Below are positions 15,960 through 53,769 of a stretch of DNA of 64,000 nt, piece after piece. The DNA comes from a bacterium. GTDB taxonomy: Bacteria; Acidobacteriota; Blastocatellia; HR10. The notes under the pieces were generated by a model. The model searched no databases. It worked only from the letters and a program-made list of their open reading frames with translations, and was not told where the DNA came from. The DNA is taken from assembly GCA_041640655.1 (NCBI GenBank), contig JBEPZV010000002.1:94182-158181 (forward strand), read 5' to 3'. Positions within the stretch are counted from its first letter, which is position 1. Each line of letters starts with the position of its first letter. The translations under genes and the position numbers were made by a program.

Positions 15960-15995
15960 CCGCCGCAATCCCCCCACAGTCCGAACAGGACGAAG

Positions 15996-18900
15996 TTTCA
16001 ATCCCCCTTGGTTCGATTAGCACGTCGCCGCCGCGGTCGCCTCCCGTCCCACCCGCGAGGTTTCAATCCCACCTTGGTTCGATTAGCACCGAAAACAAAA
16101 AAAACGGCGAGCCGATCCGATATCAGTTTCAATCCCACCTTGGTTCGATTAGCACCCAACCCGGCGCTCCCTCCACGGCAAACTCGTAGGCGTTTCAATC
16201 CCACCTTGGTTCGATTAGCACCCCCAGCACCGCGCTTGCGTGTGTGTGCGCGGCACCGTTTCAATCCCACCTTGGTTCGATTAGCACGAGAAGGACCCCA
16301 CCTCAAACCTCTCCCGAAGAACCGTTTCAATCCCACCTTGGTTCGATTAGCACTGGTGATGGGCACGTTTTGTATCCTCATCAGGTTGGTTTCAATCCCA
16401 CCTTGGTTCGATTAGCACGCGGCCACCACTGCCGACTCGCACACGACGGGCACTCGTTTCAATCCCACCTTGGTTCGATTAGCACTGAGGGTGGGGACGG
16501 ACGGGCGGAAATTTCAACGATCGTTTCAATCCCACCTTGGTTCGATTAGCACCAGAAGCAACACGGAATGAAACACCGAAGTGAGCTCGGTTTCAATCCC
16601 ACCTTGGTTCGATTAGCACGAGTCCGTCGAAGCCATTGCGGCGGTGGTTTTGGAGCGTTTCAATCCCACCTTGGTTCGATTAGCACCCGGCCCATGTTCA
16701 TCGAGCTTCCCCCATGTTCCCACGTTTCAATCCCACCTTGGTTCGATTAGCACCCGCTTACGGGTGGCCCAGATTGTGTATACTCACGTGAGTTTCAATC
16801 CCACCTTGGTTCGATTAGCACCAGATGCTGAGCTTTACAAACAATACGGAGCGTGCTTGTTTCAATCCCACCTTGGTTCGATTAGCACGGAGCCGCTTCC
16901 GGAGAAGCCTCGCTGTCGGTTCTGGTTTCAATCCCACCTTGGTTCGATTAGCACGGGAAGCGAAGCCGTGCTCATCCCCCTGCACGCTCCGTTTCAATCC
17001 CACCTTGGTTCGATTAGCACCAGAACACTGGCAGCGGGCGCTTCGGGAGCGCACGGGTTTCAATCCCACCTTGGTTCGATTAGCACCGGCAGGGCCCTTC
17101 ATTCCCATAGACATCAGCTTCAGTTTCAATCCCACCTTGGTTCGATTAGCACGGCGCGGGGGAAAGATCATGCGACTGCGACATAGTGGTTTCAATCCCA
17201 CCTTGGTTCGATTAGCACCGCCAGTCTCTGACGGCGACATCCCCTCCATGCCCTGTTTCAATCCCACCTTGGTTCGATTAGCACGATTGGGTCATTAAGC
17301 CAGCGGCCCTCCTGTTGTGCGTTTCAATCCCACCTTGGTTCGATTAGCACTTTTGTGACCGGTGGAATTCCCAGCGGATGGAATAAGTTTCAATCCCACC
17401 TTGGTTCGATTAGCACCTGAGCAAATACTCCACGATACCATCGTGATCAAACTGTTTCAATCCCACCTTGGTTCGATTAGCACAAGCGGAGATCACGCTG
17501 AGCGATAAGTGTCTACACGGGTTTCAATCCCACCTTGGTTCGATTAGCACAGTTGAATCACGAGCGCGAGGGCAAGGTTGATCCGCGTTTCAATCCCACC
17601 TTGGTTCGATTAGCACGGGCCGCTCCCACGGCCACAAATCTCCATACACCGCGTTTCAATCCCACCTTGGTTCGATTAGCACCGTAGAATTAAGCGAGCC
17701 GTCCCGAGACAGGCGCCGGTTTCAATCCCACCTTGGTTCGATTAGCACAAAATAAAAACTCCACGATCCTGTCGCGATCAAAATGTTTCAATCCCACCTT
17801 GGTTCGATTAGCACCGGGCTCCCGGCCCGCAACACCCTCTACGCACCCTGGTTTCAATCCCACCTTGGTTCGATTAGCACCTTTGGAGTATTTTGACCCC
17901 GCGCGATATGTAGCCGGTTTCAATCCCACCTTGGTTCGATTAGCACCCGCGCGATCTCAACAAATTCCTTTCGCGCCTCCAGGTTTCAATCCCACCTTGG
18001 TTCGATTAGCACAAGAAAAGGATTGAAGCTTCAGCAAGACCCTAGCTGGTTTCAATCCCACCTTGGTTCGATTAGCACCGGTCCGGCGCCGAAGCCGACC
18101 CGACGTGCGCAGCTGTTTCAATCCCACCTTGGTTCGATTAGCACCCCGTCTTTTTGATTTCACCGCAAGGAGGGGGAAAAGTTTCAATCCCACCTTGGTT
18201 CGATTAGCACGCCCCCCGGTTACGTAGAGCTCCCCAGCAGGTTCCTGTTTCAATCCCACCTTGGTTCGATTAGCACGGGAAGCATGGGGGACGACCGAAC
18301 TTCCATCGCCATTGTTTCAATCCCACCTTGGTTCGATTAGCACTCGATCGCCTTCTCCTGCTCCCTCAATCCGAGCCTTCGTTTCAATCCCACCTTGGTT
18401 CGATTAGCACCTTTCAGCGTTGCACCGTTTTCCTATTCAACCCTAGTTTCAATCCCACCTTGGTTCGATTAGCACCAATCCGTTAGCAATCTCTAACTCG
18501 GCAGCCGCATCGTTTCAATCCCACCTTGGTTCGATTAGCACGGTTAATAGTGTTACGGGAATCGCCGTGAATAATAGGTTTCAATCCCACCTTGGTTCGA
18601 TTAGCACAGGAAGTTTGGCCGAAATCGAACGCCGTGTGGTATCGTTTCAATCCCACCTTGGTTCGATTAGCACCCGGTTGAACCAGACATTCCCGAACCC
18701 GTTGAATCGTTTCAATCCCACCTTGGTTCGATTAGCACTGTCCACCGCGAGCGTCTCGACCTCGCGGCTTTCAAGTTTCAATCCCACCTTGGTTCGATTA
18801 GCACGGTATTGGGATAGGGTGAGCACCGGGGGATCTTACGGTTTCAATCCCACCTTGGTTCGATTAGCACCTCTTCACAGCAAGCTCCGCCTGCACGCGC

Positions 18901-21900
18901 TCGTCTGTTTCAATCCCACCTTGGTTCGATTAGCACCCTGCGCCTCCAGCATGTCCCCGTACTCCCTCTCCGTTTCAATCCCACCTTGGTTCGATTAGCA
19001 CCGGCTCCGCGTGAGGCGGCGCGGTTTGTGCCGCTCCTCGTTTCAATCCCACCTTGGTTCGATTAGCACTCATCCCTCCACACCGAGAAGATTCCAAACG
19101 ACTGCGTTTCAATCCCACCTTGGTTCGATTAGCACCGTGGTGGGAAGCTCAACGCGGAGCGGGTGGGATCAGTTTCAATCCCACCTTGGTTCGATTAGCA
19201 CGCTACTCCGAAGCCGATGCGCGACGCGCCATCGCGCGTTTCAATCCCACCTTGGTTCGATTAGCACGGTCGCGCTCCCCGCGCGACTGGAGATCACTAC
19301 TGGGTTTCAATCCCACCTTGGTTCGATTAGCACTTCTCCCTGCGCGTGAGCTTTTTGTGCACGCGCAGCGGTTTCAATCCCACCTTGGTTCGATTAGCAC
19401 CTGGGCCCGCGCCGCGTTAAGGATCTCCTCAGCGCGTTTCAATCCCACCTTGGTTCGATTAGCACGCACGAAACCGAAAGGAGGGAAGAGATGATCGCCT
19501 GGTTTCAATCCCACCTTGGTTCGATTAGCACGCGCTCGGCGAGATCGCGAGCGTGCTCGCGATCTCGGTTTCAATCCCACCTTGGTTCGATTAGCACCAG
19601 CGCATCGTCGTCTTTGACGATGACGCGCTGAAGTTTCAATCCCACCTTGGTTCGATTAGCACGCTACTCCGAAGCCGATGCGCGGCGCGCCATCGCGCGT
19701 TTCAATCCCACCTTGGTTCGATTAGCACTAGAATCGGATTGCCATAATCAACCTCCTCTAAATTGTTTCAATCCCACCTTGGTTCGATTAGCACCGATCC
19801 AAGACCACGCGCAACAGAGCCGCCTGGACCGGTTTCAATCCCACCTTGGTTCGATTAGCACGCGCGAAGGATCTCCTCCACGGATTGCGTAGTACGTGTT
19901 TCAATCCCACCTTGGTTCGATTAGCACCCCGAGAGACGCCGAGCAACCGAGCCGCGTCTGAAAGTTTCAATCCCACCTTGGTTCGATTAGCACCCTTGGC
20001 GTCGGAGACGACGCCGATGAACTGGTCCCCGTTTCAATCCCACCTTGGTTCGATTAGCACAACTTGAACAGCGCGGTCTTCCGACCGCGCTACCGTGTTT
20101 CAATCCCACCTTGGTTCGATTAGCACTCGAAGTCGCCGGGCGAGTCGGGCTGCACCAATTCAGTTTCAATCCCACCTTGGTTCGATTAGCACCCACGCGG
20201 TGGGCGTGAACCTTCCCCTGCCGGATCCGTTTCAATCCCACCTTGGTTCGATTAGCACCCTACTCCGAAGCCGATGCGCGACGCGCCATCGCGCGTTTCA
20301 ATCCCACCTTGGTTCGATTAGCACGCGCTCAGCCCAAGATCCATCCCCTCGATCTCCTCGGTTTCAATCCCACCTTGGTTCGATTAGCACTCAAGCGCGC
20401 GGAGATAGAGCGCGCGCGTCGCACTTGGGTTTCAATCCCACCTTGGTTCGATTAGCACCCCCTCCGCTGCGGGATCGGGTATCATGCCGACGCTAGTTTC
20501 AATCCCACCTTGGTTCGATTAGCACGAGCAGATCTTCTCCGAATACGAGCGACTCTCCCGCGTTTCAATCCCACCTTGGTTCGATTAGCACCTTTCTCGA
20601 ATTGCCGGGGAGGGGGAAACTTATGCGTTTCAATCCCACCTTGGTTCGATTAGCACCAATCTCGCCATAGACAACAGTTCGACTTTCCACCGGTTTCAAT
20701 CCCACCTTGGTTCGATTAGCACGAGGAGGTCGCGCTCCCCGCGCGACTTGAGATTCGGCGTTTCAATCCCACCTTGGTTCGATTAGCACCACACTGCTCA
20801 ACGATCTTGAAGAGTGCGTCCGCGTACGTTTCAATCCCACCTTGGTTCGATTAGCACCGAGCTCCGGATCCGGAAGGTCAACCTCCCGAGCCCGTTTCAA
20901 TCCCACCTTGGTTCGATTAGCACCCGTGCGCGCGGAGATCGCGCGCGGGCGCGGCATCCGTTTCAATCCCACCTTGGTTCGATTAGCACACAAGCGCCCG
21001 GGCCTTCGCCCAAAGCGCCATGTCCGTTTCAATCCCACCTTGGTTCGATTAGCACATGGGGATCTCGTTCACATGATCCCCACGATCTACGTTTCAATCC
21101 CACCTTGGTTCGATTAGCACCGTGCTCGTCTTCGTTGCCAGCACGGATCCCGACAGTTTCAATCCCACCTTGGTTCGATTAGCACTGGAGCGCCGCCACC
21201 GCGACCGCTCCCATGAACGTTGTTTCAATCCCACCTTGGTTCGATTAGCACGGGATCCGATCAAGCAGCGGAACATCGTCTATCCGAGTTTCAATCCCAC
21301 CTTGGTTCGATTAGCACCGCCGGGCGTGCCCGGCGCCGCTCCTGGAGTCACCGGTTTCAATCCCACCTTGGTTCGATTAGCACCAGGGGTCGGCGATCTT
21401 TCTCGCCGACCCCACAAGCGTTTCAATCCCACCTTGGTTCGATTAGCACCTCGATGCGCTCTTCGAGCGCGCGCGCGTCTTCGCTTGTTTCAATCCCACC
21501 TTGGTTCGATTAGCACTCAGCACGAAGAACAAGTGCGCCAAGCTAGCGCACGTTTCAATCCCACCTTGGTTCGATTAGCACCGCGCTTTATAGCCGTGGC
21601 CCATAGTCACCACACTAGTTTCAATCCCACCTTGGTTCGATTAGCACAAGCGCTCGAATACTTCGATCCCGCGCGCTTCATTGGTTTCAATCCCACCTTG
21701 GTTCGATTAGCACGCGCGCGAGTGTACTATGAGGGGTACGATAGACAGCGTTTCAATCCCACCTTGGTTCGATTAGCACGCGCGGCGTTCTCACTGCCTT
21801 AATGGCGTTGGCCCCGTTTCAATCCCACCTTGGTTCGATTAGCACGCGCGCCGACCCATTCGCCCGGGGCCAGCGCTAGCAGTTTCAATCCCACCTTGGT

Positions 21901-24900
21901 TCGATTAGCACCACGCGCCGAATGGGGGGGCTACCGCCGCCCCCCCTGTTTCAATCCCACCTTGGTTCGATTAGCACCAATGGCTATCCCTACGCGCATC
22001 CGCACGTCTTCAGGTTTCAATCCCACCTTGGTTCGATTAGCACGGGGACGGATCGAGCGCCGCGTGACGCGCTCGATCCTTGTTTCAATCCCACCTTGGT
22101 TCGATTAGCACGAGGGGAAGCGGTGATCGAGGCGGATCCCCACCGCCGTTTCAATCCCACCTTGGTTCGATTAGCACACGTGAAGCGCCGGACGCGCTTT
22201 CGCCGCGACCCTGGTTTCAATCCCACCTTGGTTCGATTAGCACCTGAGTGAACGCGACCGCGTGGCCGTGTACTTCGAGTTTCAATCCCACCTTGGTTCG
22301 ATTAGCACAGGAATTTGGCTCGCTCCGCGCACGTCGTAGATGTCGTTTCAATCCCACCTTGGTTCGATTAGCACCGGCTACTCCGAAGCCGATGCGCGAC
22401 GCGCCATCGCGCGTTTCAATCCCACCTTGGTTCGATTAGCACGCTGATCCTCGTCTCCTACTGATCCTCTCGCTCCCGTTTCAATCCCACCTTGGTTCGA
22501 TTAGCACGGGCGATCAATTTACACCACTGACCGTCATAAACAAGTTTCAATCCCACCTTGGTTCGATTAGCACTCCCCTCCGTGACGACCATTCTCGACC
22601 TGATCTACGTTTCAATCCCACCTTGGTTCGATTAGCACTGCCTTCACATCCAGGTGAAGACGACAGTGACCCCCGTTTCAATCCCACCTTGGTTCGATTA
22701 GCACTTGCCACCCCCTTTCTGCCCCAATGTCGCACACTGAGTTTCAATCCCACCTTGGTTCGATTAGCACGAGACCTATGCGCGTTTGGTCACCTTGGCC
22801 GAACGCGTTTCAATCCCACCTTGGTTCGATTAGCACACGAGGTGCTCACGACTGAAAGGCTATTGAAGATCCGTTTCAATCCCACCTTGGTTCGATTAGC
22901 ACCGTGGCCCCTCGATGATGATCACCTCAAGATCTCCCGTTTCAATCCCACCTTGGTTCGATTAGCACCCGCCAGGTGGTTCCGCGAGATCCTGAAAATC
23001 GTCGCGTTTCAATCCCACCTTGGTTCGATTAGCACCGCGGGTTGAACGATTTGCTCAAGTGGCTGTCCGGGTTTCAATCCCACCTTGGTTCGATTAGCAC
23101 AATACTCACGTCGCCAACTCGAAAACTTCTAACATTGTTTCAATCCCACCTTGGTTCGATTAGCACGCGATAGCGAGAGCGCTCGCTTTCACGCGTGGCG
23201 GGTTTCAATCCCACCTTGGTTCGATTAGCACCGGCCCCTCGATGATGATCACCTCCAGATCTCCCCGTTTCAATCCCACCTTGGTTCGATTAGCACATGA
23301 GGCGTTCCTCGCCCCGATCGCGGAGTTCCGCGGTTTCAATCCCACCTTGGTTCGATTAGCACCGTCAGGATGGGAATGATTGAAATAATCAGGCGCGAGT
23401 TTCAATCCCACCTTGGTTCGATTAGCACCGCGAGTGTGTCAGTTTGACACGCTCAAACCTCATCGTTTCAATCCCACCTTGGTTCGATTAGCACGAAGCC
23501 GTGAGAGCATGCCTCCGCAAGACGCCATCAGTTTCAATCCCACCTTGGTTCGATTAGCACCCACCCGCCCTTCTTCAGCCTGGGGTATGGAACCGAGTTT
23601 CAATCCCACCTTGGTTCGATTAGCACAAGTAGTAAGCGCTAGGGTGTTTGAGGTGGCCGAACGTTTCAATCCCACCTTGGTTCGATTAGCACCAATCCCC
23701 GTCTTCTTCGTCTTCTTCAACGCCCCGCGTTTCAATCCCACCTTGGTTCGATTAGCACTGATGGGCGGCCGGTGATGGATACTCATACCCTCTGGTTTCA
23801 ATCCCACCTTGGTTCGATTAGCACTACATGGCAGAGACGACCCCTTCGGTTCCATACCCCGTTTCAATCCCACCTTGGTTCGATTAGCACGAGGGTGAGC
23901 CCCTTTTTTTGCCCTCACGCGCATCAGTTTCAATCCCACCTTGGTTCGATTAGCACAGGGACGTCGGCTCTTGCGGCGAATGAGCCAGCCTGGTTTCAAT
24001 CCCACCTTGGTTCGATTAGCACGCGTCGGGAAACCGCCATCCGCTCGATCTCCTCTCGGTTTCAATCCCACCTTGGTTCGATTAGCACTGCTATCGCGGC
24101 CAGGGAGGACATGAGCCTATATGGTTTCAATCCCACCTTGGTTCGATTAGCACTTCACCCCGCGCAACCGAATCCGCCCGAAAATCCTCGTTTCAATCCC
24201 ACCTTGGTTCGATTAGCACCCTTTTGCAGGAGGCGCATGAGAAATGTCGGTCGTCGTTTCAATCCCACCTTGGTTCGATTAGCACCAACGCGCGCGAGAA
24301 AGCGCAAGAGATCAACTTTCGGTTTCAATCCCACCTTGGTTCGATTAGCACCAGCCCGGAGGAGATCTTACGGGCGGCTGAGGCCCGTTTCAATCCCACC
24401 TTGGTTCGATTAGCACGCGCGCTACGTCGCGGTGGCGCATAGCCACCACTCGAGTTTCAATCCCACCTTGGTTCGATTAGCACCGCTCGGCGAGAGTGCG
24501 AGATTGCGAGCGATCTCGGTTTCAATCCCACCTTGGTTCGATTAGCACCTTGCGCATAATCCCCAATGTGGATCTCGCCAAAAGGTTTCAATCCCACCTT
24601 GGTTCGATTAGCACCTCTCGGCCTCGGCCTCCGCTGTGCGAAGGATTTCTTGTTTCAATCCCACCTTGGTTCGATTAGCACTAATCCGCGCGCCGTTTTT
24701 TTTTGGGAGGGGAGAGAGTTTCAATCCCACCTTGGTTCGATTAGCACTAGTTTGTCATCTTGGCCTCCTCGCTCAATGCCCCGGTTTCAATCCCACCTTG
24801 GTTCGATTAGCACCGTTCAATACCGTCCGTGAGCGCCCCCCTATGAACAGTTTCAATCCCACCTTGGTTCGATTAGCACGGGCATCGCCGCCCCGGGTGG

Positions 24901-27900
24901 AACCGCCGTCTTGTACGTTTCAATCCCACCTTGGTTCGATTAGCACCGTTGCGGCTCCTGTGCGCATGGACGTCAGGAGCCTGTTTCAATCCCACCTTGG
25001 TTCGATTAGCACTTGCCCGCCTTTGGCGGTCCCGTCAGAACAACTACGAGTTTCAATCCCACCTTGGTTCGATTAGCACAGCACAGCGTGCACTTCACAC
25101 CGTGCCCGCTGTGTAGTTTCAATCCCACCTTGGTTCGATTAGCACCCTGACTTTCCACCGTGATTTCGAGGCGGTCACGGGTTTCAATCCCACCTTGGTT
25201 CGATTAGCACCGGATTCACAAGCCGGCGACGCGTCCGGGTCTAGCCGTTTCAATCCCACCTTGGTTCGATTAGCACCCTCCGGCGATTTCGCCGCCGACG
25301 ACCGAACATCGCGTTTCAATCCCACCTTGGTTCGATTAGCACCGGATTCGGAGGGCAGACCTCGCGAGGCTCCTCCGTTTCAATCCCACCTTGGTTCGAT
25401 TAGCACTGAGGATCCGTTCCCGCAACCGTCGAAAACTCTCGAGTTTCAATCCCACCTTGGTTCGATTAGCACGCTACTCCGAAGCCGATGCGCGACGCGC
25501 CATCACGCGTTTCAATCCCACCTTGGTTCGATTAGCACCCCGATCGGCTTTGGCCGAATAAAACCCATAATCCCGTTTCAATCCCACCTTGGTTCGATTA
25601 GCACGCGGCTGGATGGGGTGTCCTTTCAAGTGCCCATATGGTTTCAATCCCACCTTGGTTCGATTAGCACTCGCCTACATCCTTAGCCAACGTGCGAATG
25701 TGCTCTGTTTCAATCCCACCTTGGTTCGATTAGCACCAGTTTGCAAGGCCGCTTTTAACCAGTTACTCACTGGTTTCAATCCCACCTTGGTTCGATTAGC
25801 ACGATTCCACGACTCATAGAGTCGTGGGCACCCTCTAGGTTTCAATCCCACCTTGGTTCGATTAGCACCATCCTCAGAGACATCGCCCGTGATGGAGTAC
25901 CCTAGTTTCAATCCCACCTTGGTTCGATTAGCACCAATTTGTTTCACATTGTCATTTCCCGTGAAATCTTGTTTCAATCCCACCTTGGTTCGATTAGCAC
26001 CGATGCTTTTCGCGTAGTCCCCTAAAACCCGTTGAAGTTTCAATCCCACCTTGGTTCGATTAGCACCCTTGTGCGAGAAATGTCACAGAAAGAAACATGA
26101 AGTTTCAATCCCACCTTGGTTCGATTAGCACAAAACCGAGAGGAGGGAGTATGAGCATGATCGCCTGGTTTCAATCCCACCTTGGTTCGATTAGCACCAG
26201 CATGGAGCGCGGAGGCGATTCTTGAGCAGGCAGGTTTCAATCCCACCTTGGTTCGATTAGCACCTCAATCCCCCTGTACTTGATGGTAACCACTCGATCG
26301 TTTCAATCCCACCTTGGTTCGATTAGCACTTGTCGCGCGCGGACTTGGCTTCTCGCGCAATCCGCGTTTCAATCCCACCTTGGTTCGATTAGCACGAAGT
26401 ATGCCGTTCAGACTGGAACCCACCCCCAGCGGTTTCAATCCCACCTTGGTTCGATTAGCACCCCGCCGAGCGCATCGCCGAGGATCTCGTGCAGATCGTT
26501 TCAATCCCACCTTGGTTCGATTAGCACGGGACGGATCGAGCGCCGCGTGACGCGCTCGATCATCGTTTCAATCCCACCTTGGTTCGATTAGCACATGCCG
26601 TGTAGCGAGAAGCGCGCCCGTCTGCTCCTTGTTTCAATCCCACCTTGGTTCGATTAGCACTCGCCTTCGTGGGGAACCTCATCGCCCACGTGGCCCGGTT
26701 TCAATCCCACCTTGGTTCGATTAGCACCCGAGTGGGAATTCATATAACACTGAATTCATTACTGTTTCAATCCCACCTTGGTTCGATTAGCACTGATCGT
26801 CGTTCGTCGGTTTCCGACATTTCCGCAAGGTTTCAATCCCACCTTGGTTCGATTAGCACATCCTCGTCTCCTACTGATCTCCTACTGAGACTCCCGTTTC
26901 AATCCCACCTTGGTTCGATTAGCACTTTGGAGGGGAAGATGGATCAGAGGCTCTTCGTGATGTTTCAATCCCACCTTGGTTCGATTAGCACCTTGAGTAG
27001 GGGGGAGCACTGCGCGAAGATGGCGCATGTTTCAATCCCACCTTGGTTCGATTAGCACCGCGCGCGGGCTTGGCTTTTCCCGCAATCCCGGCCAAGTTTC
27101 AATCCCACCTTGGTTCGATTAGCACCGGGCGAAATCCTCGCGGTCAAGACGGCGGCAGGATGTTTCAATCCCACCTTGGTTCGATTAGCACCGCGCAGCG
27201 GGGAGTGATCGCCCGTTGCGGAGAGTGGTTTCAATCCCACCTTGGTTCGATTAGCACCTGTCGGCGCTATTCAACATCAATCTCAATAGCGGTTTCAATC
27301 CCACCTTGGTTCGATTAGCACCCATTATAGCACAGAACCGCTCCAAAAAGCAAAACCGTTTCAATCCCACCTTGGTTCGATTAGCACTTCGCCCCCCAAT
27401 GTGCGGAGCGTATGAAACATATTGTTTCAATCCCACCTTGGTTCGATTAGCACATTGCGCGCGCGCTCGGCTACTCCGAAGCCGATGCGGTTTCAATCCC
27501 ACCTTGGTTCGATTAGCACTGGACGCCCTTCGTCACTTGCGGCAGATGCAGGAACGTTTCAATCCCACCTTGGTTCGATTAGCACTATGTTATTGATATT
27601 GCGTGACTTAATGACAGCAAGGTTTCAATCCCACCTTGGTTCGATTAGCACGAAGCAGCTCATCTTGTGCTGGTTCCAAGTCGTCTTGTTTCAATCCCAC
27701 CTTGGTTCGATTAGCACCCGCACGTGCGGAGGACGAAATCTATCCAAGCCTCGTTTCAATCCCACCTTGGTTCGATTAGCACCGGCGACCACGCCCTCTT
27801 TGTCATCTCCCCGGGGAGTTTCAATCCCACCTTGGTTCGATTAGCACTTGTACGCCCGGCCATCCGCCGCGAGGAGGATCTCGGTTTCAATCCCACCTTG

Positions 27901-30900
27901 GTTCGATTAGCACGCTACTCCGAAGCCGATGCGCGGCGCGCCATCGCGCGTTTCAATCCCACCTTGGTTCGATTAGCACATATTGAAGAGCGCCGACAGC
28001 GCGCCCGCCAGCCCGGTTTCAATCCCACCTTGGTTCGATTAGCACCGATCGAGCACGGCGCATTGTCTACACCGTGCTCGTGTTTCAATCCCACCTTGGT
28101 TCGATTAGCACCACGAGCAGCTTTGCGGGTGAACAGGGCAGAGTTTGGTTTCAATCCCACCTTGGTTCGATTAGCACCTGATTGAGGTCATCCCTCCGCT
28201 GCCCCCCCCGAGACGTTTCAATCCCACCTTGGTTCGATTAGCACCAGCACCTCGCTGATCAGGAACCAAAAATCATCATCCGTTTCAATCCCACCTTGGT
28301 TCGATTAGCACTCCCGCCTCCTCCAGCTCCCGGAGAAAGTCCTCTAGGTTTCAATCCCACCTTGGTTCGATTAGCACGATGAGCGCTCTGACCTCCGCGA
28401 GTGAGATCACGTACGTTTCAATCCCACCTTGGTTCGATTAGCACCCGCGCCTGCAGGGGCGCGGGGAGCACGAAACCGAAGTTTCAATCCCACCTTGGTT
28501 CGATTAGCACCTTCAAGGCACTCATTCTCCGTGAGCGCCTCGACGAGTTTCAATCCCACCTTGGTTCGATTAGCACGGAGCCGCCCGACGTGCGGAGGAC
28601 GAAGTCCACCCAGTTTCAATCCCACCTTGGTTCGATTAGCACTAGTCGCGTTAAGGGGGGACTGTTGCCTTCACATCCGTTTCAATCCCACCTTGGTTCG
28701 ATTAGCACCGGCGGACGCGCTCTTACAGCGCGTGGCCACGATTGGTTTCAATCCCACCTTGGTTCGATTAGCACTACGATGAATGGGTACTTCAAGGGGC
28801 AGGGTACGCAGTTTCAATCCCACCTTGGTTCGATTAGCACGTCCCTCTCTCATCCCTCTTGACACACTCTTGACACGTTTCAATCCCACCTTGGTTCGAT
28901 TAGCACTATCCCCTCTGTGACGACCATACTCGATCTGATATATGTTTCAATCCCACCTTGGTTCGATTAGCACTTGGAATGCAACCCTCTCGAGGATGGT
29001 GGCGCCTTGGTTTCAATCCCACCTTGGTTCGATTAGCACGATCCATCATGAGGAAGTCGTTCGCCGCATCGCTTCGTTTCAATCCCACCTTGGTTCGATT
29101 AGCACCGGGCGCGGGGAAACGGGCACGATGACCGGGACGCGGTTTCAATCCCACCTTGGTTCGATTAGCACATCCTCCCCCACCAATGTCCTTCCCTTGA
29201 ATCAAATGTTTCAATCCCACCTTGGTTCGATTAGCACGAGGAGACCGTATGCTCGTGCTGACGGAAAACGGACGTTTCAATCCCACCTTGGTTCGATTAG
29301 CACGCTTCCGAGTCTACCGAGAGAATACACCGAACTCGTGTTTCAATCCCACCTTGGTTCGATTAGCACCAAACGGCGCGCGGGCCGAAAAGCCCACGCG
29401 CCGAATGTTTCAATCCCACCTTGGTTCGATTAGCACCTGCCGCCGGTGTGCTGCTGCTCATCCTCGTTCTCGTTTCAATCCCACCTTGGTTCGATTAGCA
29501 CGGGACTGAGGAGGCGAAGGCGTTCATCGCCTTCGCCGGTTTCAATCCCACCTTGGTTCGATTAGCACCTCGAACTTCTCAACAGACTGCTCGAAACCGT
29601 TCGCGTTTCAATCCCACCTTGGTTCGATTAGCACTATATCTGCACTGGGATGGTGAATGCTCACATTCAGTTTCAATCCCACCTTGGTTCGATTAGCACT
29701 CATCCGTGAGCGGCTGCGGCTGCGTGTGCGGCTGAGTTTCAATCCCACCTTGGTTCGATTAGCACCAAATCTCCGGACTTCAGTTGTGAGGTTTTGGCCA
29801 AGTTTCAATCCCACCTTGGTTCGATTAGCACCAATCCCCAAGACGCGATCCTCGCAGTCCAACCCTAGTTTCAATCCCACCTTGGTTCGATTAGCACCTT
29901 TGACGTCCTCGGCCTCCGCGAGGGGACGCTCACGCGTTTCAATCCCACCTTGGTTCGATTAGCACCCAGGATCCCATCCTCGATCGCCAGATTTCACCGG
30001 GTTTCAATCCCACCTTGGTTCGATTAGCACAAGAAGTCGCGCTTCCCGCGCGACTTGAAATTGTCCGTTTCAATCCCACCTTGGTTCGATTAGCACCAGA
30101 AGATCAACTTTCGAGGGGAACGCCCGCCCGAGTTTCAATCCCACCTTGGTTCGATTAGCACAGGATGAGCGTATGCCGAGAAGCCGCTACCCACATCGTT
30201 TCAATCCCACCTTGGTTCGATTAGCACCGTCTTCGGCGGCGGGCGTGTGTGTTTTGGGGACGTCGTTTCAATCCCACCTTGGTTCGATCAGCACCAACTC
30301 CCCCGCCAGTGAAGCCGAGAGACCACACCAAGTTTCAATCCCACCTTGGTTCGATTAGCACCTCAAGCGTCATAGCCATGATCATCCTCCTTCTTCAGTT
30401 TCAATCCCACCTTGGTTCGATTAGCACGTGTACACCCACATCCGTCGAACCTACGACCGCATGCGTTTCAATCCCACCTTGGTTCGATTAGCACGTGTAC
30501 ACCCACATCCGTCGAACCTACGACCGCATGCGTTTCAATCCCACCTTGGTTCGATTAGCACAATCGCCGGAAGCGCTCACGTTTTGCCGCACGAAAAGTT
30601 TCAATCCCACCTTGGTTCGATTAGCACCGGGTACCCGTACGCGCACCCGCACGTCTTCAGCGAGTTTCAATCCCACCTTGGTTCGATTAGCACGAATTGA
30701 AACAATCCTTGAATACGCGCTTGATCGCGGTTTCAATCCCACCTTGGTTCGATTAGCACAGATATCCGCATCCTGCGTCTTGAGCAGCGCGTGCCAGTTT
30801 CAATCCCACCTTGGTTCGATTAGCACACTTGAGCGGTGGGAGAAGCTGTCCGAGTATTCGATTGTTTCAATCCCACCTTGGTTCGATTAGCACATTCTCT

Positions 30901-33536
30901 CGAGTTTTTCGATCCCGCGCGCTACGTCGCGTTTCAATCCCACCTTGGTTCGATTAGCACGCCGCCAGCGCAGGAGTGGATCGAGCTGGCCTCAGAGTTT
31001 CAATCCCACCTTGGTTCGATTAGCACTCTGAAGAACTCCGTGTTGGAGACGTTTCCCTCGAGTTTCAATCCCACCTTGGTTCGATTAGCACCACCTCTTC
31101 ACCGATGCCGAATATGAGCTGCTCCGTGTTTCAATCCCACCTTGGTTCGATTAGCACCGATCTCCCTCCCACCATCGCGCACGCGATGATCGGTTTCAAT
31201 CCCACCTTGGTTCGATTAGCACAAGCGCTCGAGCACTTCGATCCCACGCGCTACGTCGGTTTCAATCCCACCTTGGTTCGATTAGCACCGCGCGATCTCG
31301 ACAAACTCGCGTCGCGCGTCGAGGTTTCAATCCCACCTTGGTTCGATTAGCACCCGCTGCGGAGAGTGCGGCGATGTCGAGCGCGTTCGGTTTCAATCCC
31401 ACCTTGGTTCGATTAGCACCGTCGGGAAACCGCCATCCGCTCGATCTCCTCTCTGTTTCAATCCCACCTTGGTTCGATTAGCACCTCCGCCTGAGCCGCC
31501 GCCTGCTCCAAAATTTCCTCGTTTCAATCCCACCTTGGTTCGATTAGCACCATCACTGCGCGCGCGGAGAGCGCGCGCGAGGACGAGGTTTCAATCCCAC
31601 CTTGGTTCGATTAGCACTCGTGATTGACGCCGACCATCACCGGGGGGATTTTGTTTCAATCCCACCTTGGTTCGATTAGCACCTACGACCTTCCCCCCAC
31701 CATCGCGCACGCGATGCTGGCGTTTCAATCCCACCTTGGTTCGATTAGCACGATGAGGAGAAGCGGGTGTGGAAGCCGTTTCTCGAGGTTTCAATCCCAC
31801 CTTGGTTCGATTAGCACCAGCGAAAGCGTACGCTTTCGCTATCTGTTCTTCGATGGTTTCAATCCCACCTTGGTTCGATTAGCACAGGTCTGTCCCCTGC
31901 TTCCAAGGAAGCTGCAGAATTGTTTCAATCCCACCTTGGTTCGATTAGCACGATTGTCGAACTTTCGCGCGCCCACGCGAATTCAACGTTTCAATCCCAC
32001 CTTGGTTCGATTAGCACGCTGGGCCGCCGCGGCCTTCTCGGCAGGCCGATCACGTTTCAATCCCACCTTGGTTCGATTAGCACCCTGGTCGGGGCGTCGA
32101 ATGAGCTTCCGTCCATCAGTTTCAATCCCACCTTGGTTCGATTAGCACCCCGCAGAGCGCATCGCCGAGGATCTTGTGCAGATCGTTTCAATCCCACCTT
32201 GGTTCGATTAGCACCGTCATCGTCTTTGACGATGACGCGCTTGAGGGGACGTTTCAATCCCACCTTGGTTCGATTAGCACACATCCTCGACTCCGGGGCA
32301 GGTTCCCTTGCCGCTCGTTTCAATCCCACCTTGGTTCGATTAGCACCCCGGCCCGCCAGCGCCGCAGAGGCCCGCACGACCTGTTTCAATCCCACCTTGG
32401 TTCGATTAGCACTGCGTGCGCTTGCGGATGCGGAACTCCGCGTCACGCGTTTCAATCCCACCTTGGTTCGATTAGCACTTTCCGACATTTCCGCAAGTGG
32501 TCGAAGCCATGCGTGTTTCAATCCCACCTTGGTTCGATTAGCACCGCTCGGCGAGGCGCTCGGCGAGCCGCGCGCCGTGGTTTCAATCCCACCTTGGTTC
32601 GATTAGCACGATGCAGACGAAGAGGTTGAAGAAGCTGTTGAACCGGTTTCAATCCCACCTTGGTTCGATTAGCACGAGGGGGAATCGTCCCCCTCGCTCC
32701 AGGAGGGAATCGTTTCAATCCCACCTTGGTTCGATTAGCACCTCTCGGACCTCGACAATAAAATTGCCGACTCGCGTGTTTCAATCCCACCTTGGTTCGA
32801 TTAGCACAAGCCGTCGAGGCGATCACGGCTGTCGTCCTCGAACGTTTCAATCCCACCTTGGTTCGATTAGCACTGAGAAGCTGCCACCGTCCCTGCCGTC
32901 ACCCCAAGAGTTTCAATCCCACCTTGGTTCGATTAGCACTTGATGAGCGCGAGCCAATCGTCCAGCCTGCTCCGCGTTTCAATCCCACCTTGGTTCGATT
33001 AGCACCCCCATGTGTACTCCCTAGCTAGCAGAACGTTTTCCGTTTCAATCCCACCTTGGTTCGATTAGCACCGTCGGCGCCTGGCACGCCGATGCGGCCG
33101 ACTACAGGTTTCAATCCCACCTTGGTTCGATTAGCACCGTTGAGCGTGCGCCCGGAGCGACCGCGACGGAATCGTTTCAATCCCACCTTGGTTCGATTAG
33201 CACGAGATGATCGTGGTAGCTCCATTGTCGGTGATTCAGGTTTCAATCCCACCTTGGTTCGATTAGCACTGACTACTTCGGGTCTTTCCTGCTCCTTGAA
33301 ATAACGTTTCAATCCCACCTTGGTTCGATTAGCACCAGCGGCGGGAACCGGTTTCCCCCATCGGCCGAACTTGTTTCAATCCCACCTTGGTTCGATTAGC
33401 ACCGGCGATGTCGAGCGCGTTCACGGCATCGCCGCGAACGGTTTCAATCCCACCTTGGTTCGATTAGCACAGAACGGCCTCGACAAGGGCGAGGAGGGCT
33501 TCTAAAGTTTCAATCCCACCTTGGTTCGATTAGCAC
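15996..33536 (-). CRISPR. CRISPR array of about 264 repeats of 30 bp (plus strand GTTTCAATCCCACCTTGGTTCGATTAGCAC; transcribed orientation GTGCTAATCGAACCAAGGTGGGATTGAAAC), spacers about 34-39 bp
   Basis: Perfectly periodic repeat across 17.5 kb. Eleven unit lengths measured by hand were 64-67 bp. The reverse complement ends in ATTGAAAC (canonical 8-nt 5-prime handle). The only degenerate repeat (29 nt, one A deleted) is at the low-coordinate end (15996-16024). The cas genes and a promoter lie at the high-coordinate end, which gives minus-strand transcription. Confidence 0.98.
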
Positions 33537-33540
33537 CCAC

Positions 33541-33568
33541 GAAATTTGGCCGAAAAAGGCCAAATTTC
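33541..33568 (-). other. Perfect 11-bp-stem hairpin (GAAATTTGGCC-GAAAAA-GGCCAAATTTC) 4 nt from the leader-proximal repeat
   Basis: Inverted repeat read directly. Lies between the predicted -10 box and the first repeat, so it would form the 5-prime end of the pre-crRNA. Confidence 0.8.
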
Positions 33569-33575
33569 GGCGTTT

Positions 33576-33605
33576 ATTATGCCGTCGTCCCCCGGTTTCT
33601 GTCAA
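33576..33605 (-). promoter_or_regulatory. Putative sigma70-type promoter of the CRISPR array
   Basis: Minus strand reads TTGACA (33605-33600), 18 nt, CATAAT (33581-33576). This is about 40 nt upstream of the first repeat, in a locally AT-richer patch. Confidence 0.55.
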
Positions 33606-34213
33606 GGGGGCGGGGAACGACGGCACTGCGTTCGAGAAGGGACCCCGGCCAACCGCCTCGGCGTTCCGTGAAACCTTGATAGAGCGAGAGATCGTCGATG
33701 CTGCCTCGAAACTCCGTCCGCGCCCCACAAGTTTCTTGCAGTCTCGAGAAGGCGAGAGAACGACCTGCGGATTTCATCCTAAGGTATGCTCTCAGATGAT
33801 GCCGAATCTCCAACTCAGGCGGCATGAGCGTACGCTCAAAGAGACATACCCTCCGCCGACGTCAAACCTCCCCTTGAGTCTCGTGGGACCTCGTGAGGCA
33901 CGCTATCCCCTTTCCCAACCGAAGTGGGTTCCCGATGACCCCATCCGCCTCACAAGCAGCTGCCAGCAGAGCCGGCCCCACGGTAGTCTGAACGCATCGC
34001 CAGCGGCCGCGAAGATGCTCCAGTCGGGAGCCCCCGCCGCAGCTTTGTTCCTCATCGGGATGGGCGAGCAGCAGTGCGTCACAAACCCTCAGCCCTGCCG
34101 CCCGGCATTTCCTCTCACGATCGGAGGAGCGCACCCAACCGTGATCCCGATGTTTCAGCCGGCATCCGTCGCTCGTGATCTCCCCCTGTTCGGCAAATGC
34201 GCGCTTTCGTCCC

Positions 34214-34477
34214 TTACACGATATTCTCCGTCTCTCCCCTGATCTGCCCTAGGACCTCCTTCCTCACCCACCGCGCCTCCCTCAAGATGTAGAGGTAGAT
34301 GGAATCGCGCTCCTCATCGATGATGTCCTTCAACCCGAGCTTCACACGCTCCAGTTGCGCCTCGCTCAGCTCCCCCTCGAATGCGGAATTCTGCACCCAA
34401 TTCAGGTAGCGGCGCAGGAACTGACAGACTTTCGCGACCCGCTCTTGCTCCACATCATAGACGAGGATAACGTACAT
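34214..34477 (-). CDS. cas2: CRISPR-associated endoribonuclease Cas2
   Basis: 87 aa from the ATG at 34477, with GGGGGAGGG just upstream. Sequence MYVILVYDVEQERVAKVCQFLRRYLNWVQNSAFEGEL is typical of Cas2. Lies 13 nt after the cas1 stop. Confidence 0.9.
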   Translation of the reverse strand: MYVILVYDVEQERVAKVCQFLRRYLNWVQNSAFEGELSEAQLERVKLGLKDIIDEERDSIYLYILREARWVRKEVLGQIRGETENIV

Positions 34478-34490
34478 TGCCCTCCCCCTC

Positions 34491-35678
34491 TCACCACCAT
34501 GCGCGCAGCGCCTGATACGGCTCAATTCCCAGCAGATGCCGCACGAGCTTGTAGCACTCTAATCGGATGAACCCACGATACGAGACATGCCGCCCAAGGC
34601 GCCGATGCTTCACCGTCGTTTGCAGCCGATGCTCGAACTCCTGCACGACGATCTTGCGCGCGCGTTCCTTCAAAGCTGCGAACCCCACCTCCGACAGGAG
34701 ATCGCCCTCGCCGATCATTTGCCGATTGATCAACGCGAAGATCATCTTGTCTACAATCATCGGCTTGAAGACCTCAGCGATGTCCAGCGCCAGGGAGAAC
34801 CGACGCGTCCCCGGTTCATGCAGGTACGAGATCGTGGGATTGAGGGGCGTTCGGTAGATCTGCGAGAGCACGGCCGCATACAACAGTGAGTTCCCGAAGC
34901 TGATCAGCGCGTTGATCAAATTATCGGGCGGACGCTTCACGCGCTTGAGAAACGGCGTCTCCAGATCGAGAATCTCATTGAAGGCGCGATAGTAGATCTC
35001 GCGCATGCGCCCTTCGGCCCCCATGAGCGCCGCGATGGAGTCGGCGCGTTCAAGCTCCGCAGCCTCTCGCTCCAAGGCTTCGATGACCTCTTGCAACGCC
35101 TTGCCCCGATTCCGGTAGTAGAGCACGTTGCGATGGAGGTTGTGATAAGCGCCGCGCGCGAACTCCCGCGCGATCGTGAGCCGCTTGGCCGCATCGGTGT
35201 AATGCTCCACCTGCCTCACGAGCAGGTGTCCGGAAACGTTCGTCTCTCGCGGATAGTAGGAACCGCTGTAGAACCCATAGTAGTTGAAGACGTGAACCGG
35301 AATGCCCTTCTGCGCGAGGAAGTTCAGAAGCTTCGTATTCAGGGCGATCTCACCGAAGAGGAAGAGTTCGGTGACATCCTCAACCGGGATAATCCGCCGA
35401 CGCTCAGATGAAACTGCGGTCTTACGCCTCTCGTCATCTGGCGGAGATCCGGCTTCTCCTGCGGAATTGGGCGCTCGCCCTACCTCGGCCGCCGAAGATT
35501 CTTCGGGCTCCTCGCCCGCGCGTTCCGAGGGAAGCCCGTGCCCATACTCAGTCCCCGCAGAAGATCGCTCGGCTTCGTCCACGCGTTGAGAGATCGCCGG
35601 ATCTTCCCCCTCCAAATATAACGTGTTCCCTCTTCGCCGAAGACGCCCGTTTTGGAAGACATAATAACTGCGCGCCAT
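34491..35678 (-). CDS. cas1: CRISPR-associated integrase Cas1 (I-B-like) with a low-complexity N-terminal-domain insertion
   Basis: ATG at 35678 preceded by GGGAGGGGG (the ORF is open to 35693). Cas1 blocks: YYVFQNGRLRRRGNTLYLEG, IIPVEDVTELFLFGEIALNTKLLNFLAQKGIPVHVFNYYGFYSGSYYPRE and the C-terminal catalytic domain (ISYLHEPGTRRFSLALDIAEVFKP). Confidence 0.9.
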   Translation of the reverse strand: MARSYYVFQNGRLRRRGNTLYLEGEDPAISQRVDEAERSSAGTEYGHGLPSERAGEEPEESSAAEVGRAPNSAGEAGSPPDDERRKTAVSSERRRIIPVEDVTELFLFGEIALNTKLLNFLAQKGIPVHVFNYYGFYSGSYYPRETNVSGHLLVRQVEHYTDAAKRLTIAREFARGAYHNLHRNVLYYRNRGKALQEVIEALEREAAELERADSIAALMGAEGRMREIYYRAFNEILDLETPFLKRVKRPPDNLINALISFGNSLLYAAVLSQIYRTPLNPTISYLHEPGTRRFSLALDIAEVFKPMIVDKMIFALINRQMIGEGDLLSEVGFAALKERARKIVVQEFEHRLQTTVKHRRLGRHVSYRGFIRLECYKLVRHLLGIEPYQALRAWW

Positions 35679-35823
35679 CTCGCCCCCTCCCATTCATCAT
35701 CAGCCCACAAAGCCGCCCCCATCCGCGCGACTCATGTCTCGGATGAGCTTCGTCGGCACTGCGATCTCCACACCGCGCTCAGCGCGCCATAAATCCGGCG
35801 CGATTTCGACCGCCTCATTCAGT

Positions 35824-36339
35824 TCATCCCCAACACAACTCAGCATAAGCGCAGGACCGACAAATCGGCATGAACTCGACTTGTGGCGGCGCGGGAAGCT
35901 GCTCAATCCGACGGATCTCCCGCAACGCCGCTTCGACCTCTCGCTCAGCGTCTTCGGTCAGCCACACTGGTTCCCGCCGCCGCTCTTTGGGAAAGCGCAG
36001 CTCGCCGGTCAGTCCCGCCACGCCCAGGCGTTTCAGGTAATAGAGGTAGTAGAGGACTTGCCGTCGGGCGGCCTCTTTCATACACTGAGAATATTTAACC
36101 TCCAGCACCTTCCATTCGCTTTCCAGAAGATCCACCTTAATGAGATTATCAATGAGCAATTCTCGTCGTGGCTTCTCGCCGTAGGCACGCTCGTGAAGCA
36201 ATTTGCCCAAAGCCACGCGGTCGCTCTCTTGCTCCATGCGAATGTCGTGGCTATAGAGCCAGAGTTTCCGCGGACAGACCACATAGTAGTTGACCTTGAT
36301 ACCGTTCGTCTTCAGCTCGGCAAATTCTTCATCGGTCAT
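35824..36339 (-). CDS. cas4: CRISPR-associated exonuclease Cas4 (RecB-like, Fe-S Cys cluster)
   Basis: 171 aa from the ATG at 36339 (the ORF track extends it spuriously to 36582). One N-terminal Cys (YYVVCPRKLWLY) plus a C-terminal CRSCAYAELC cluster. Position between cas3 and cas1. Confidence 0.85.
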   Translation of the reverse strand: MTDEEFAELKTNGIKVNYYVVCPRKLWLYSHDIRMEQESDRVALGKLLHERAYGEKPRRELLIDNLIKVDLLESEWKVLEVKYSQCMKEAARRQVLYYLYYLKRLGVAGLTGELRFPKERRREPVWLTEDAEREVEAALREIRRIEQLPAPPQVEFMPICRSCAYAELCWG

Positions 36340-36352
36340 CGTCCATCTCTCC

Positions 36353-39044: not shown

Positions 39045-40325
39045 TTAATCATCCTCGGGAAGCTGAGGAAGATGATACTCATTGAGATTTTTCAAGCGAT
39101 CCTGAACTAGTTTCGACAAAAAGTCTTCCACCACGACATCTCGGAGCTTCTGAAAGGCTTCTTGACCCACCGGTTGGAAACCATGCGCCAAGGGCGAGAT
39201 GTTGCGGCATTCAAGATAGGGCTTCAGCCGAGATTTAGATTCTCGATACAGGTTGAGAAAATGTTGCCCTAGCTCGTCTCCAAGATCAGCGAGGAGCTCG
39301 TAGCCATGGAGCATACCTACCTTGAGGCGCCCGTCAGGCCCCACACGGGATTCCCATTTGGGCCGCACGGCTTCTGGGATAACCCCCAAACAGACGTTGT
39401 CACTTCGAATGCCCTTGTCGTGGAGGCGCCGTTGGGCGATATACTCCATCAAACGATAGAGGAGGGCCACGGCCACATCATATCTATGCTCCTTCGCTCG
39501 CCGATCCGCATTCGCCAGGATGTCTAAGGAGATTGCCTCGTTTAACGGTAAGCCGCACCTGCAGCTCTCACTTTTACACCGACTATTCCAGATCCCATGG
39601 ACGATGGGGCTAGCCCTTTTAAGTTCGTTTTCAAGCCCTAAATCCTGTACGATGTCCTCGAAGTCCTTAAGCACCTGGCGAAGGCCCTGAGCTGCATCTT
39701 CGTAGTGAAGCACGTCCCAGGCTTCGCAGGCCTTCGCCAGTTGCTCTACAAAATTCAACCGTCTTTTGTGTTCTTCTCTGACTATACGCCACTGAAGGTC
39801 CTCGATGCGATTCAGAACGCTCGCAAAGTGGCCCGCATTGAAAAGTTGGACCAATGTCTTCCAATGTCGCCGGAACAGGAGATTTGATGGCGGGAAGCTC
39901 AATAGGCGCTCGGTGCCTGACTTGACCTGACCCCGTTCGTCCCGCTCCCCCTCAATATAACTAACGCCAGCCAATTCGAGATTGATGGCCACATAGTCCA
40001 CAGCGGCTGACATCGCTTTGGTGCCTCGCGTGTAGTCAACATAAACCTGATTAGGTTGAAACCCTCGATCCCGGAATAAAACCCGACGAATGACCTTCTC
40101 GTATTGTAATGCTAGCTCTTGAACATCATTGATCTCTTGAAACTCTTCGATCTTGTAGCGAGACTCAGGGAGGGATTGGGTTTGAACGACCTTATCAACG
40201 TTGCTTCGGCTCTGAGGCGTACAGAGAAAAAGAACGAAGTCTGGATTATGCTGGTCGGTGGCAAATACCAGCGAGCGATCTACATCCTTACCAACCCCAA
40301 CTGTCAGAACTAATGCTTTACTCAT
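39045..40325 (-). CDS. CARF-HEPN protein (Csm6/Csx1 class; resembles the TIGR02710-type family)
   Basis: 426 aa from the ATG at 40325, with GGAGG 11 nt upstream. N-terminal CARF signatures (ALVLTVGVGKD, VDYTRGTKAMSAA). C-terminal R-x6-H HEPN motif (ECRNISPLAHG). Visibly lower GC than the flanks (one 60-nt line counted at 38%). Confidence 0.75.
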   Translation of the reverse strand: MSKALVLTVGVGKDVDRSLVFATDQHNPDFVLFLCTPQSRSNVDKVVQTQSLPESRYKIEEFQEINDVQELALQYEKVIRRVLFRDRGFQPNQVYVDYTRGTKAMSAAVDYVAINLELAGVSYIEGERDERGQVKSGTERLLSFPPSNLLFRRHWKTLVQLFNAGHFASVLNRIEDLQWRIVREEHKRRLNFVEQLAKACEAWDVLHYEDAAQGLRQVLKDFEDIVQDLGLENELKRASPIVHGIWNSRCKSESCRCGLPLNEAISLDILANADRRAKEHRYDVAVALLYRLMEYIAQRRLHDKGIRSDNVCLGVIPEAVRPKWESRVGPDGRLKVGMLHGYELLADLGDELGQHFLNLYRESKSRLKPYLECRNISPLAHGFQPVGQEAFQKLRDVVVEDFLSKLVQDRLKNLNEYHLPQLPEDD

Positions 40326-40359
40326 AGTAGCTGGTCCCTCCGCAAAATAAGAAGAGCGA

Positions 40360-44875: not shown

Positions 44876-44878
44876 GCT

Positions 44879-45715: not shown

Positions 45716-45720
45716 GCCAC

Positions 45721-50694: not shown

Positions 50695-50710
50695 AGTACC
50701 TCCATCACGC

Positions 50711-51736: not shown

Positions 51737-51753
51737 GACGCACCTCCTTGGGT

Positions 51754-53766: not shown

Positions 53767-53769
53767 GGC

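Follow-up and report, generated by a model that had tools for sequence, protein, structure and literature searches.

The 64,000-nucleotide (nt) stretch of bacterial DNA analysed here (hereafter the window; positions 94,182 to 158,181 of contig JBEPZV010000002.1, assembly GCA_041640655.1) carries a long CRISPR array next to type I-B cas genes and a type III-D module, and seven spacers of this array were found to cover one and the same target. Six of them represent the same protospacer, with a common end anchored at the protospacer-adjacent motif (PAM) and a ragged PAM-distal end (36 or 38 nt), and the seventh represents an overlapping protospacer on the same strand. We conclude with high confidence that the copies are independent captures rather than products of duplication within the array; the support is strong for at least five of the events, and all seven were probably acquired independently. 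The seven spacers, which lie exactly at the coordinates given in a preliminary description of this DNA, are listed below in window coordinates from the oldest to the newest, with spacer numbers (#) running from the left end of the array and variants given in the sense of the CRISPR RNA (crRNA).

15995-33536, minus strand: CRISPR array of 266 repeats and 265 spacers, leader end at 33536 and trailer end at 15995
19202-19237, minus strand: #48, oldest copy; A allele, 36 nt; crRNA sense GCGCGATGGCGCGTCGCGCATCGGCTTCGGAGTAGC
19663-19698, minus strand: #55, G allele (crRNA-sense T14>C), 36 nt; identical to #180
20259-20294, minus strand: #64, A allele; PAM-distal last base C36>G
22375-22412, minus strand: #96, A allele, 38 nt; extra CG at the 3' (PAM-distal) end, PAM-proximal end shared
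25473-25508, minus strand: #143, A allele plus crRNA-sense C4>T (seed)
27454-27489, minus strand: #173, CGCATCGGCTTCGGAGTAGCCGAGCGCGCGCGCAAT; overlapping protospacer on the same strand, shifted by 16 nt
27914-27949, minus strand: #180, newest copy; G allele, identical to #55

Five distinct sequences are present among the seven spacers, differing in length, allele or register. On the plus strand three positions vary: position 23 by an A/G transition (A in four copies, G in #55 and #180), position 33 by a G/A transition (#143) and position 1 by a G>C transversion (#64). In the crRNA sense these are positions 14, 4 and 36 (the last base), respectively. The preliminary description had asked whether the variants coincide with the seed, and this was found for one of the three variable positions (position 4), positions 14 and 36 lying outside it. 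The identity that it had reported between #55 and #180 is exact. Two details of it required correction: the offset of #173, put at 17 nt, was measured as 16 nt against the 36-nt copies and 14 nt against #96, and the final 'R' of the merged peptide is absent from the sequence, the merged target of all seven spacers being 52 nt long, that is, 17 codons (IARALGYSEADARRAIA) and 1 nt.

Read from the oldest copy onward, the series consists of #48 (A), #55 (G), #64 (A), #96 (A), #143 (A', the A allele plus the seed change), #173 (G-derived) and #180 (G), at successive intervals of 7, 9, 32, 47, 30 and 7 spacers, and the alleles alternate through time. Each new capture was preceded by an older spacer that matched fully or partially, the previous copy lying 7 to 47 units deep, and #64, #96, #180 and arguably #55 (one non-seed mismatch) brought no new specificity.

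The seven-fold clustering far exceeds chance. The window contains the 31-nt core 6 times, for an expectation of 0 from 100 shuffles, and the all-against-all comparison of 264 spacers gave 48 pairs at a score of >=15, 21 of which fell within the seven-spacer cluster, compared with at most 1 spacer pair at this score in Markov-chain nulls. About 10 other same-protospacer groups were found, each captured two or three times, with a maximum of 3 members. When these two- to three-fold groups are assumed to reflect random recapture, the background implies ~3000 effective sites, and a six-fold coincidence is then expected ~2e-6 times.

The surroundings of the copies showed none of the marks of segmental duplication within the array. 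Neighbours within +/-3 spacers of each copy were unrelated, the only two scores, 12 and 14, standing at noise level; the copies lie 7 to 125 units apart, without common flanks and not in tandem, and the sole identical pair, #55 and #180, is separated by 125 units and has differing neighbours on both sides. The layout of the array itself is real. Contig L016 (VAPR01009252.1, from an NCBI metagenome assembly) starts inside #143, ends in #180 and carries spacers 144-179 in identical order, #173 included; its two ends fall exactly where a short-read assembler would be expected to break. In X2, a hot-spring run from 2019, unitig depths were ~3500 at the #96-specific junction, 6500-6700 in two one-mismatch unitigs and 10000 over the A-allele 3' part common to #48, #64 and #96; with the unitigs assigned to alleles as we infer them, this 1:2:3 ratio fits one clonal genome with the copy numbers of the window. 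The preference for independent acquisition over segmental duplication expressed in the preliminary description therefore held, on the strength of the five distinct sequences, the unrelated neighbours and the collinear contig.

The array is transcribed on the minus strand, with the leader and the newest spacers at the right, because the repeat handle, the position of cas2, the leader promoter, the degenerate repeat at the left and the anchored plus-strand 3' ends of the spacers all agree. The repeat reads GTGCTAATCGAACCAAGGTGGGATTGAAAC on the minus strand and terminates in ATTGAAAC, the common 8-nt handle of crRNAs. Every cas gene is encoded on the minus strand and to the right of the array, cas2 abuts the right array end, and the leader between them contains a sigma-70-like promoter.

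33537-34213, minus strand: leader, 677 nt, with promoter TTGACA-18-CATAAT at 33605-33576, ~40 nt upstream of the first repeat

At the opposite end, a degenerate terminal repeat with a 1-nt deletion was found at 15995-16023, which together with the last spacer occupies 15995-16059, and among same-site spacers of unequal length the plus-strand 3' end was anchored in 6 cases versus 3. On this reading the right-hand (plus-strand 3') end of each spacer is therefore the PAM-proximal or seed end, and the left-to-right listing of the preliminary description coincides with the order from oldest to newest.

A scan with GTTTCAATCCCACCTTGGTTCGATTAGCAC recovered 265 repeat copies at 16060-33536, 264 of which were identical; the repeats measure 30 nt and the spacers 34-39 nt (mode 36), forming the regular repeat-spacer array of a I-B system. 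The sole variant among the 265 full-length repeats (30265-30294) carries a T>C change, GATCAGCAC in place of GATTAGCAC, and sits inside the array, ~50 units from the leader and away from the trailer. Exact-repeat scans overlook the degenerate repeat and last spacer at 15995-16059, at the trailer end next to atuA. The array also contains one pair of adjacent identical 37-nt spacers, #218 and #219 (30428-30464 and 30495-30531), for which Tandem Repeats Finder gave 100% identity over 30398-30561; this sole true tandem unit duplication shows how within-array copying looks here.

The PAM was read from spacers that run past the PAM-side end of another spacer rather than from real targets. In this way 5'-CCN was obtained in 11 of 16 independent overlap cases from this array and related arrays, against ~8-10% by composition, and the convergent pair #114/#118 added two further CCT cases. 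The CCN overlaps and the anchored plus-strand 3' end together display the PAM 5' of the protospacer, fixing one spacer end, that is expected of type I-B, and the I-B prespacers of Pyrococcus furiosus have the same end, NGG/CCN (PMC7293040). For the six-fold protospacer, whose plus-strand end is ...CCATCGCGC, the adjoining PAM is predicted to be NGG on the plus strand, equivalent to CCN. Only the G allele offers #173 the canonical trinucleotide, CCG, in place of which the A allele has TCG, and this spacer was therefore most likely captured from a G-allele genome.

The target probably lies in a coding region, as had been proposed. In the plus-strand frame IARALGYSEADARRAIA the A/G polymorphism is CGA/CGG, a synonymous third-codon change, and a spacer of the related 'Bacterium HR10' (contig L008, 1014-1049, old and trailer-proximal) matches the homologous region on the opposite strand in 22 of 23 nt and adds a further synonymous difference, GCC>GCG; the target as captured in the window contains a CCG PAM for it. 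In #143, GCG has become ACG, which replaces Ala by Thr. The synonymous differences suggest a real gene, and the HR10 spacer also speaks for a target that is foreign and conserved. A 20-residue peptide (the last 3 residues taken from the HR10 homologue) gave 18.5 bits and E = 0.003 against RuvA_C (PF07499), below the gathering score of 24, and this weak RuvA_C-like motif may serve as a lead. All seven crRNAs have the same orientation, antisense to the inferred mRNA, and could accordingly be usable by the III-D module as well.

A host repeat as the source, named earlier as a finding that would overturn the interpretation, was not encountered: the target was unmatched elsewhere in the window, where no spacer matches outside the array, in the GTDB representative genomes (HR08 and HR10 included; degenerate pattern) and in 11 other runs holding the same host. 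The search of viral contigs that had been recommended gave no match in IMG/VR with the exact 20-mer and three codon-degenerate patterns of the target, nor did its degenerate pattern match JGI metagenomes or the target peptide match PHROGs. When the merged 52 nt were compared by blastn with GenBank phages and PLSDB plasmids, nothing better than chance matches (E >= 0.09) was returned; larger portions of the array, ~16 kb for phages and 7.9 kb for plasmids, were likewise unmatched, and none of ~240 spacers tested against GenBank phages matched. The array targets elements outside those phage and plasmid collections. Among Logan contigs of 20 hot-spring runs searched with the six-fold spacer (four of them also with #173), only X2 matched, and its matches were pieces of 60 nt or less that resemble array fragments.

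A looser protein-level pattern in metagenomes gave 7 matches, one of which was the array fragment L016 of the same organism; the other six were set aside as chance-like occurrences of a motif (Y[TC/stop]EADAR[RS]A[IM]) in unrelated sequences, some HEPN-like and one with a stop codon within the match. No other spacer prolongs the 52-nt target at either end. Two patterns derived from other multiply captured spacers, taken as a route to the element, found no match; one other 20-mer led to 6 IMG/VR contigs, which were rejected since no further spacer matched beyond chance among the matches listed.

The cas genes of the window, all on the minus strand, comprise an adaptation and nuclease module, a III-D module with accessory genes and a set of I-B effector genes, as follows, with profile scores given against their cut-offs.

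34214-38905, minus strand: adaptation/nuclease module (cas2, cas1b, cas4, cas3)
34214-34477, minus strand: cas2; PF09827 recorded for the gene at the same position in contig L001, which is 100% identical here
34491-35693, minus strand: cas1b; 428.7 bits, cut-off 304.1
35824-36582, minus strand: cas4; 75.7 bits, cut-off 65
36353-38905, minus strand: cas3 (HD and helicase); core and HD domains above cut-offs
39045-49671, minus strand: type III-D module and accessory genes (Csx10, Csx7-like repeat-associated mysterious proteins (RAMPs), Cas10 and others)
49930-56235, minus strand: type I-B effector genes (cas5b, cas7/csh2, cas8b and two cas6)
49930-50694, minus strand: cas5b; 97.6, cut-off 97
50711-51736, minus strand: cas7/csh2; 213.8, cut-off 171.55
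51754-53766, minus strand: cas8b/Csh1; 68.2, below the cut-off of 104, in the expected position
53770-54513 and 55468-56235, minus strand: cas6 genes; 117.9 and 133.6, cut-off 58.65

The III-D block encodes a CRISPR-associated Rossmann fold (CARF) protein, a Csx14/ring-nuclease-like protein, several Csx7-like RAMP proteins, Csx10 and Cas10, with scores of 275.4 for Csx10 (cut-off 177.3), 228.1 for Csx7 (cut-off 108) and 89.2 for Cas10, under its cut-off of 170. Judged from this gene content, which includes the cas10, csx10 and csx7-type RAMP genes expected of III-D, the locus is classed as type I-B with a co-located III-D. Embedded within the III-D operon on the minus strand is a single open reading frame (44879-45715) that fuses an MntA-like nucleotidyltransferase antitoxin with a HepT-like HEPN RNase toxin (73.2 and 59 bits, cut-off 60). 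The two cas6 genes stand at the head of the I-B operon; in Thermus, a type III-associated Cas6 is reported as a negative regulator of I-B (PMC12102369).

The multiplicity of the captures is, in our judgement and with modest confidence, best explained by a composite, namely biased re-acquisition through primed or interference-driven I-B adaptation combined with a favoured or selected site. Seven separate integrations would have been carried out by the I-B adaptation module Cas1-Cas2-Cas4, drawing on one ~52-bp stretch of a protein-coding gene in a recurrent mobile element; six would be captures of one protospacer from at least three co-circulating alleles, and the seventh (#173) would come from the overlapping protospacer. 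An existing crRNA with a full or partial match would bring the I-B Cascade and Cas3 to the site, this recognition would feed primed or interference-driven adaptation, and a favoured protospacer at or beside the site would be re-sampled at each invasion, with retention of the copies then aided by conservation of the site. Biased acquisition is favoured by redundancy, since for most copies an older equivalent lay only 7 to 47 spacers deep at the time of their addition, and the alternating alleles point to co-circulating variants together with an acquisition bias. The gene set capable of priming (I-B Cascade, Cas3 and Cas4) is present. In P. furiosus, I-B Cascade, Cas3 and Cas4 are all required for priming, for which full or partial matches suffice (PMC7293040), and targets with a perfect match drive acquisition close to the protospacer in type I-F (PMC5059440).

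Several observations weigh against biased re-acquisition as the explanation. In P. furiosus the main peak of new spacers lies on the PAM-side non-target strand, off the primed protospacer (PMC7293040), and exact re-capture is not predicted by priming alone, so that an intrinsic hot spot or selection must be added. The same-strand lean of offset-overlapping spacer pairs is weak (~8 versus 3), and a codon-usage test of the spacers revealed no overall sense or antisense bias (133 versus 131). The target element, from which the PAM of the six-fold protospacer and the positions of the other 258 spacers would be read, was found in none of the collections searched. For clustering around the site, the sole pointer is #173, with its 20-nt overlap on the same strand.

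Two other accounts of the multiplicity are unlikely in our estimation, and to the same degree. The first is pure escape and recapture, in which each copy was selected after the element had mutated away from a prior spacer and no acquisition bias is needed. The arms race with escape mutants invoked in the preliminary description agrees with #143, which differs from all older copies at seed position 4, and the G and A alleles also differ; in Legionella arrays, overlapping sites are covered by spacers of which the older match imperfectly and the newer perfectly (PMC5071653). Newer copies should then match variants that older ones miss, whereas #64 and #96 repeat the allele of #48, and #180 repeats #55, which a pure race would not predict. 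Moreover, the A/G site is at position 14, outside the seed, and synonymous, resembling a neutral polymorphism; the alleles alternate without progression; and the co-located III-D module would, by analogy with another type III system, be expected to tolerate single mismatches (PMC5576922). Without a bias, six random naive captures of one site are again confronted with the expectation of ~2e-6.

The second is an intrinsic hot spot that is sampled regardless of existing spacers, by naive adaptation at each infection, for example a site near a fixed DNA end of the element (packaging or injection) or a site where forks stall. The extreme over-representation of one protospacer plus one overlapping neighbour would fit such a site, ~10 other array sites were captured 2 or 3 times, and the efficiencies with which protospacers are used vary widely (PMC6282206). 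Against this, a host with a perfect spacer would normally destroy the invader, and acquisition under these circumstances amounts to targeted or primed adaptation.

Somewhat less likely than either is a functional role of the copy number itself, in which a 265-unit array would weight its memory through several spaced copies of one guide against the most conserved site of a chronic or recurrent element, or else a hyper-acquired site built into the element, for instance a fixed DNA end or a decoy. If true, this would constitute a quantitative layer of CRISPR memory. To our knowledge, such a layer has not been described for natural arrays.

It is improbable that some of the copies originated inside the array from an existing unit that recombined, underwent gene conversion or was re-integrated, the candidates being #180 as a copy of #55, and #64 as a copy of #48 with a point mutation added. 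The identity of #55 and #180 and the existence of a true tandem unit duplication (#218/#219) lend this idea some plausibility, and most repeated spacers in CRISPRCasdb were classed as duplications, with few reacquisitions or independent insertions (PMC11472070). It has to contend with the lack of any flanking spacer common to the copies and with their separation by 7 to 125 units, and #96 (38 nt), #173 (16-nt shift), #143 and the two alleles are not derivable by copying. Self-acquisition from the array is likewise disfavoured, the trinucleotide that precedes each spacer in the repeat being AAC and not a CCN PAM.

Selection for dosage is very unlikely as the explanation; it holds that extra guide copies offset dilution in a 265-unit array and are kept against the most dangerous or most conserved target, raising the share of that crRNA. 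Identical or equivalent redundant copies are indeed kept across a long stretch of the array, and their common antisense orientation would make all seven usable by III-D too. Dosage would explain the retention of copies and not their origin, and recombination between identical copies should remove the spacers lying between them, as argued in PMC11472070. Finally, an assembly chimera of several strains' arrays that inflated the copy number, conceivable in that long arrays of identical repeats assemble poorly and strain variants exist (one lacks spacers 11-27 and has one extra trailer spacer), is scarcely credible beside the collinearity of L016 over 144-179, the 1:2:3 depths in X2 and the absence of duplicated spacer blocks.

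The host is a thermophilic Acidobacteriota-like bacterium. About a dozen hot-spring metagenomes contain the leader, with 100% of its sampled words recovered, and the exact repeat is found in 'Bacterium HR08', in 'Bacterium HR10' and in hot-spring metagenome-assembled genomes (MAGs) that bear the label Acidobacteriota or Blastocatellia. The left flank of the window shows 93.4% identity to HR08 and 94.6% to HR10, and HR10 has the same layout from atuA to the array trailer, with a degenerate terminal repeat too (L008, 851-881). In X2, window positions 22370-22417 gave a host k-mer depth of ~3500x, and the host therefore dominates that sample. X2 was the sole run holding the seven spacers; eleven other runs have an identical leader and none of the seven, so that arrays differ between populations beyond the common trailer.

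The strain variant mentioned above, which co-occurs with the window's strain (contig L002; GCA_006214125.1, VAPR01004118.1), is without spacers 11-27 (17 units; window 16754-17850), carries its extra spacer before spacer 1 and shares spacers 1-10 and 28-44 exactly, which shows block deletion and insertion polymorphism at the old array end. Two array-only contigs with the exact repeat, L009 and L010 (DAOTWO010000406.1 and DAOTWO010000196.1), are binned in a 'Thermomicrobium sp.' MAG; they are probably mis-binned and give no support to a second host.

Recapture of sites is widespread in the rest of the array. The second most recaptured target is represented by four spacers and an overlapping fifth.

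17881-17916: #28
21648-21683: #85
24417-24453: #127, overlapping
30894-30930: #225
31223-31258: #230

These spacers encode variants of LE[YFH]FDP[AT]R[YF][VI] and are more diverged from one another than the seven-fold set; a pattern of this target found no match in IMG/VR. Altogether ~55-75 of the 264 spacers fall into some 20-30 groups with a common target site (for example 22044/26528, 22903/23232, 24023/31420, 26462/32149, 26794/32479 and 31354/33403), and the HR10 array also targets several of these sites (W41, W50, W54/W245, W158/W244 and W207). Spacers #52 (19466-19501) and #153 (26132-26167), with #188 (28445-28480) overlapping #52, cover an apparent gene start in two diverged versions, both of which have a Shine-Dalgarno-like AGGAGGG followed by ...ATGATCGCCTG. 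The widespread sharing of sites indicates that the memory is drawn from a small pool of related elements; most of the host's immune memory would thus come from elements of which none was present in the public virus and plasmid collections searched.

Primed adaptation has reportedly been described for the type I-B system of Haloarcula hispanica. The I-B system of P. furiosus resembles the present one in its Cascade, Cas3, Cas4 and Cas1-Cas2 and in the 5'-CCN/NGG prespacer end, and there a full or partial crRNA match stimulates uptake from the same DNA (PMC7293040). In contrast to that assay, the window holds a natural array record, in which the recognised protospacer itself was recaptured six times, with one overlap. 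In Legionella pneumophila, a type I-C array contains same or overlapping spacers against the episome LME-1, which the authors read as repeated invasion by close relatives and natural priming (PMC5071653); those are spacer pairs with a known target, whereas the window has seven spacers that are mostly redundant and show no progressively better match. The I-F system of Pectobacterium atrosepticum accounts for how a host with a perfect spacer can still gain spacers from the same region, and differs from the present locus in its subtype and its Cas2-3 fusion (PMC5059440). Marinomonas mediterranea, in which type III backs up type I against escape, likewise has a type III system beside a type I system, with a single array and crRNAs antisense to the inferred transcript (PMC5576922); the systems there are III-B with I-F, and here III-D, a putative user of the array, with I-B.

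The occurrence of one spacer more than once per array is also known from the SpacerPlacer catalogue, in which 3.3% of spacers were duplicate candidates, 86% of these being duplications and ~1% each reacquisitions and independent insertions (PMC11472070); in the window, by comparison, at least five of the seven are not duplications. Independent re-acquisition is rated rare in those curated arrays, and the present locus contains at least five captures of one site. The phenomenon is a known one, of which this standard I-B/III-D locus provides an unusually strong natural case, and no new mechanism or kind of system is implied. Its captures are time-ordered, their alleles are known and the PAM is inferable, and the element, if recovered, could let the locus separate priming, targeted acquisition, a hot spot and selection in an uncultured thermophile.

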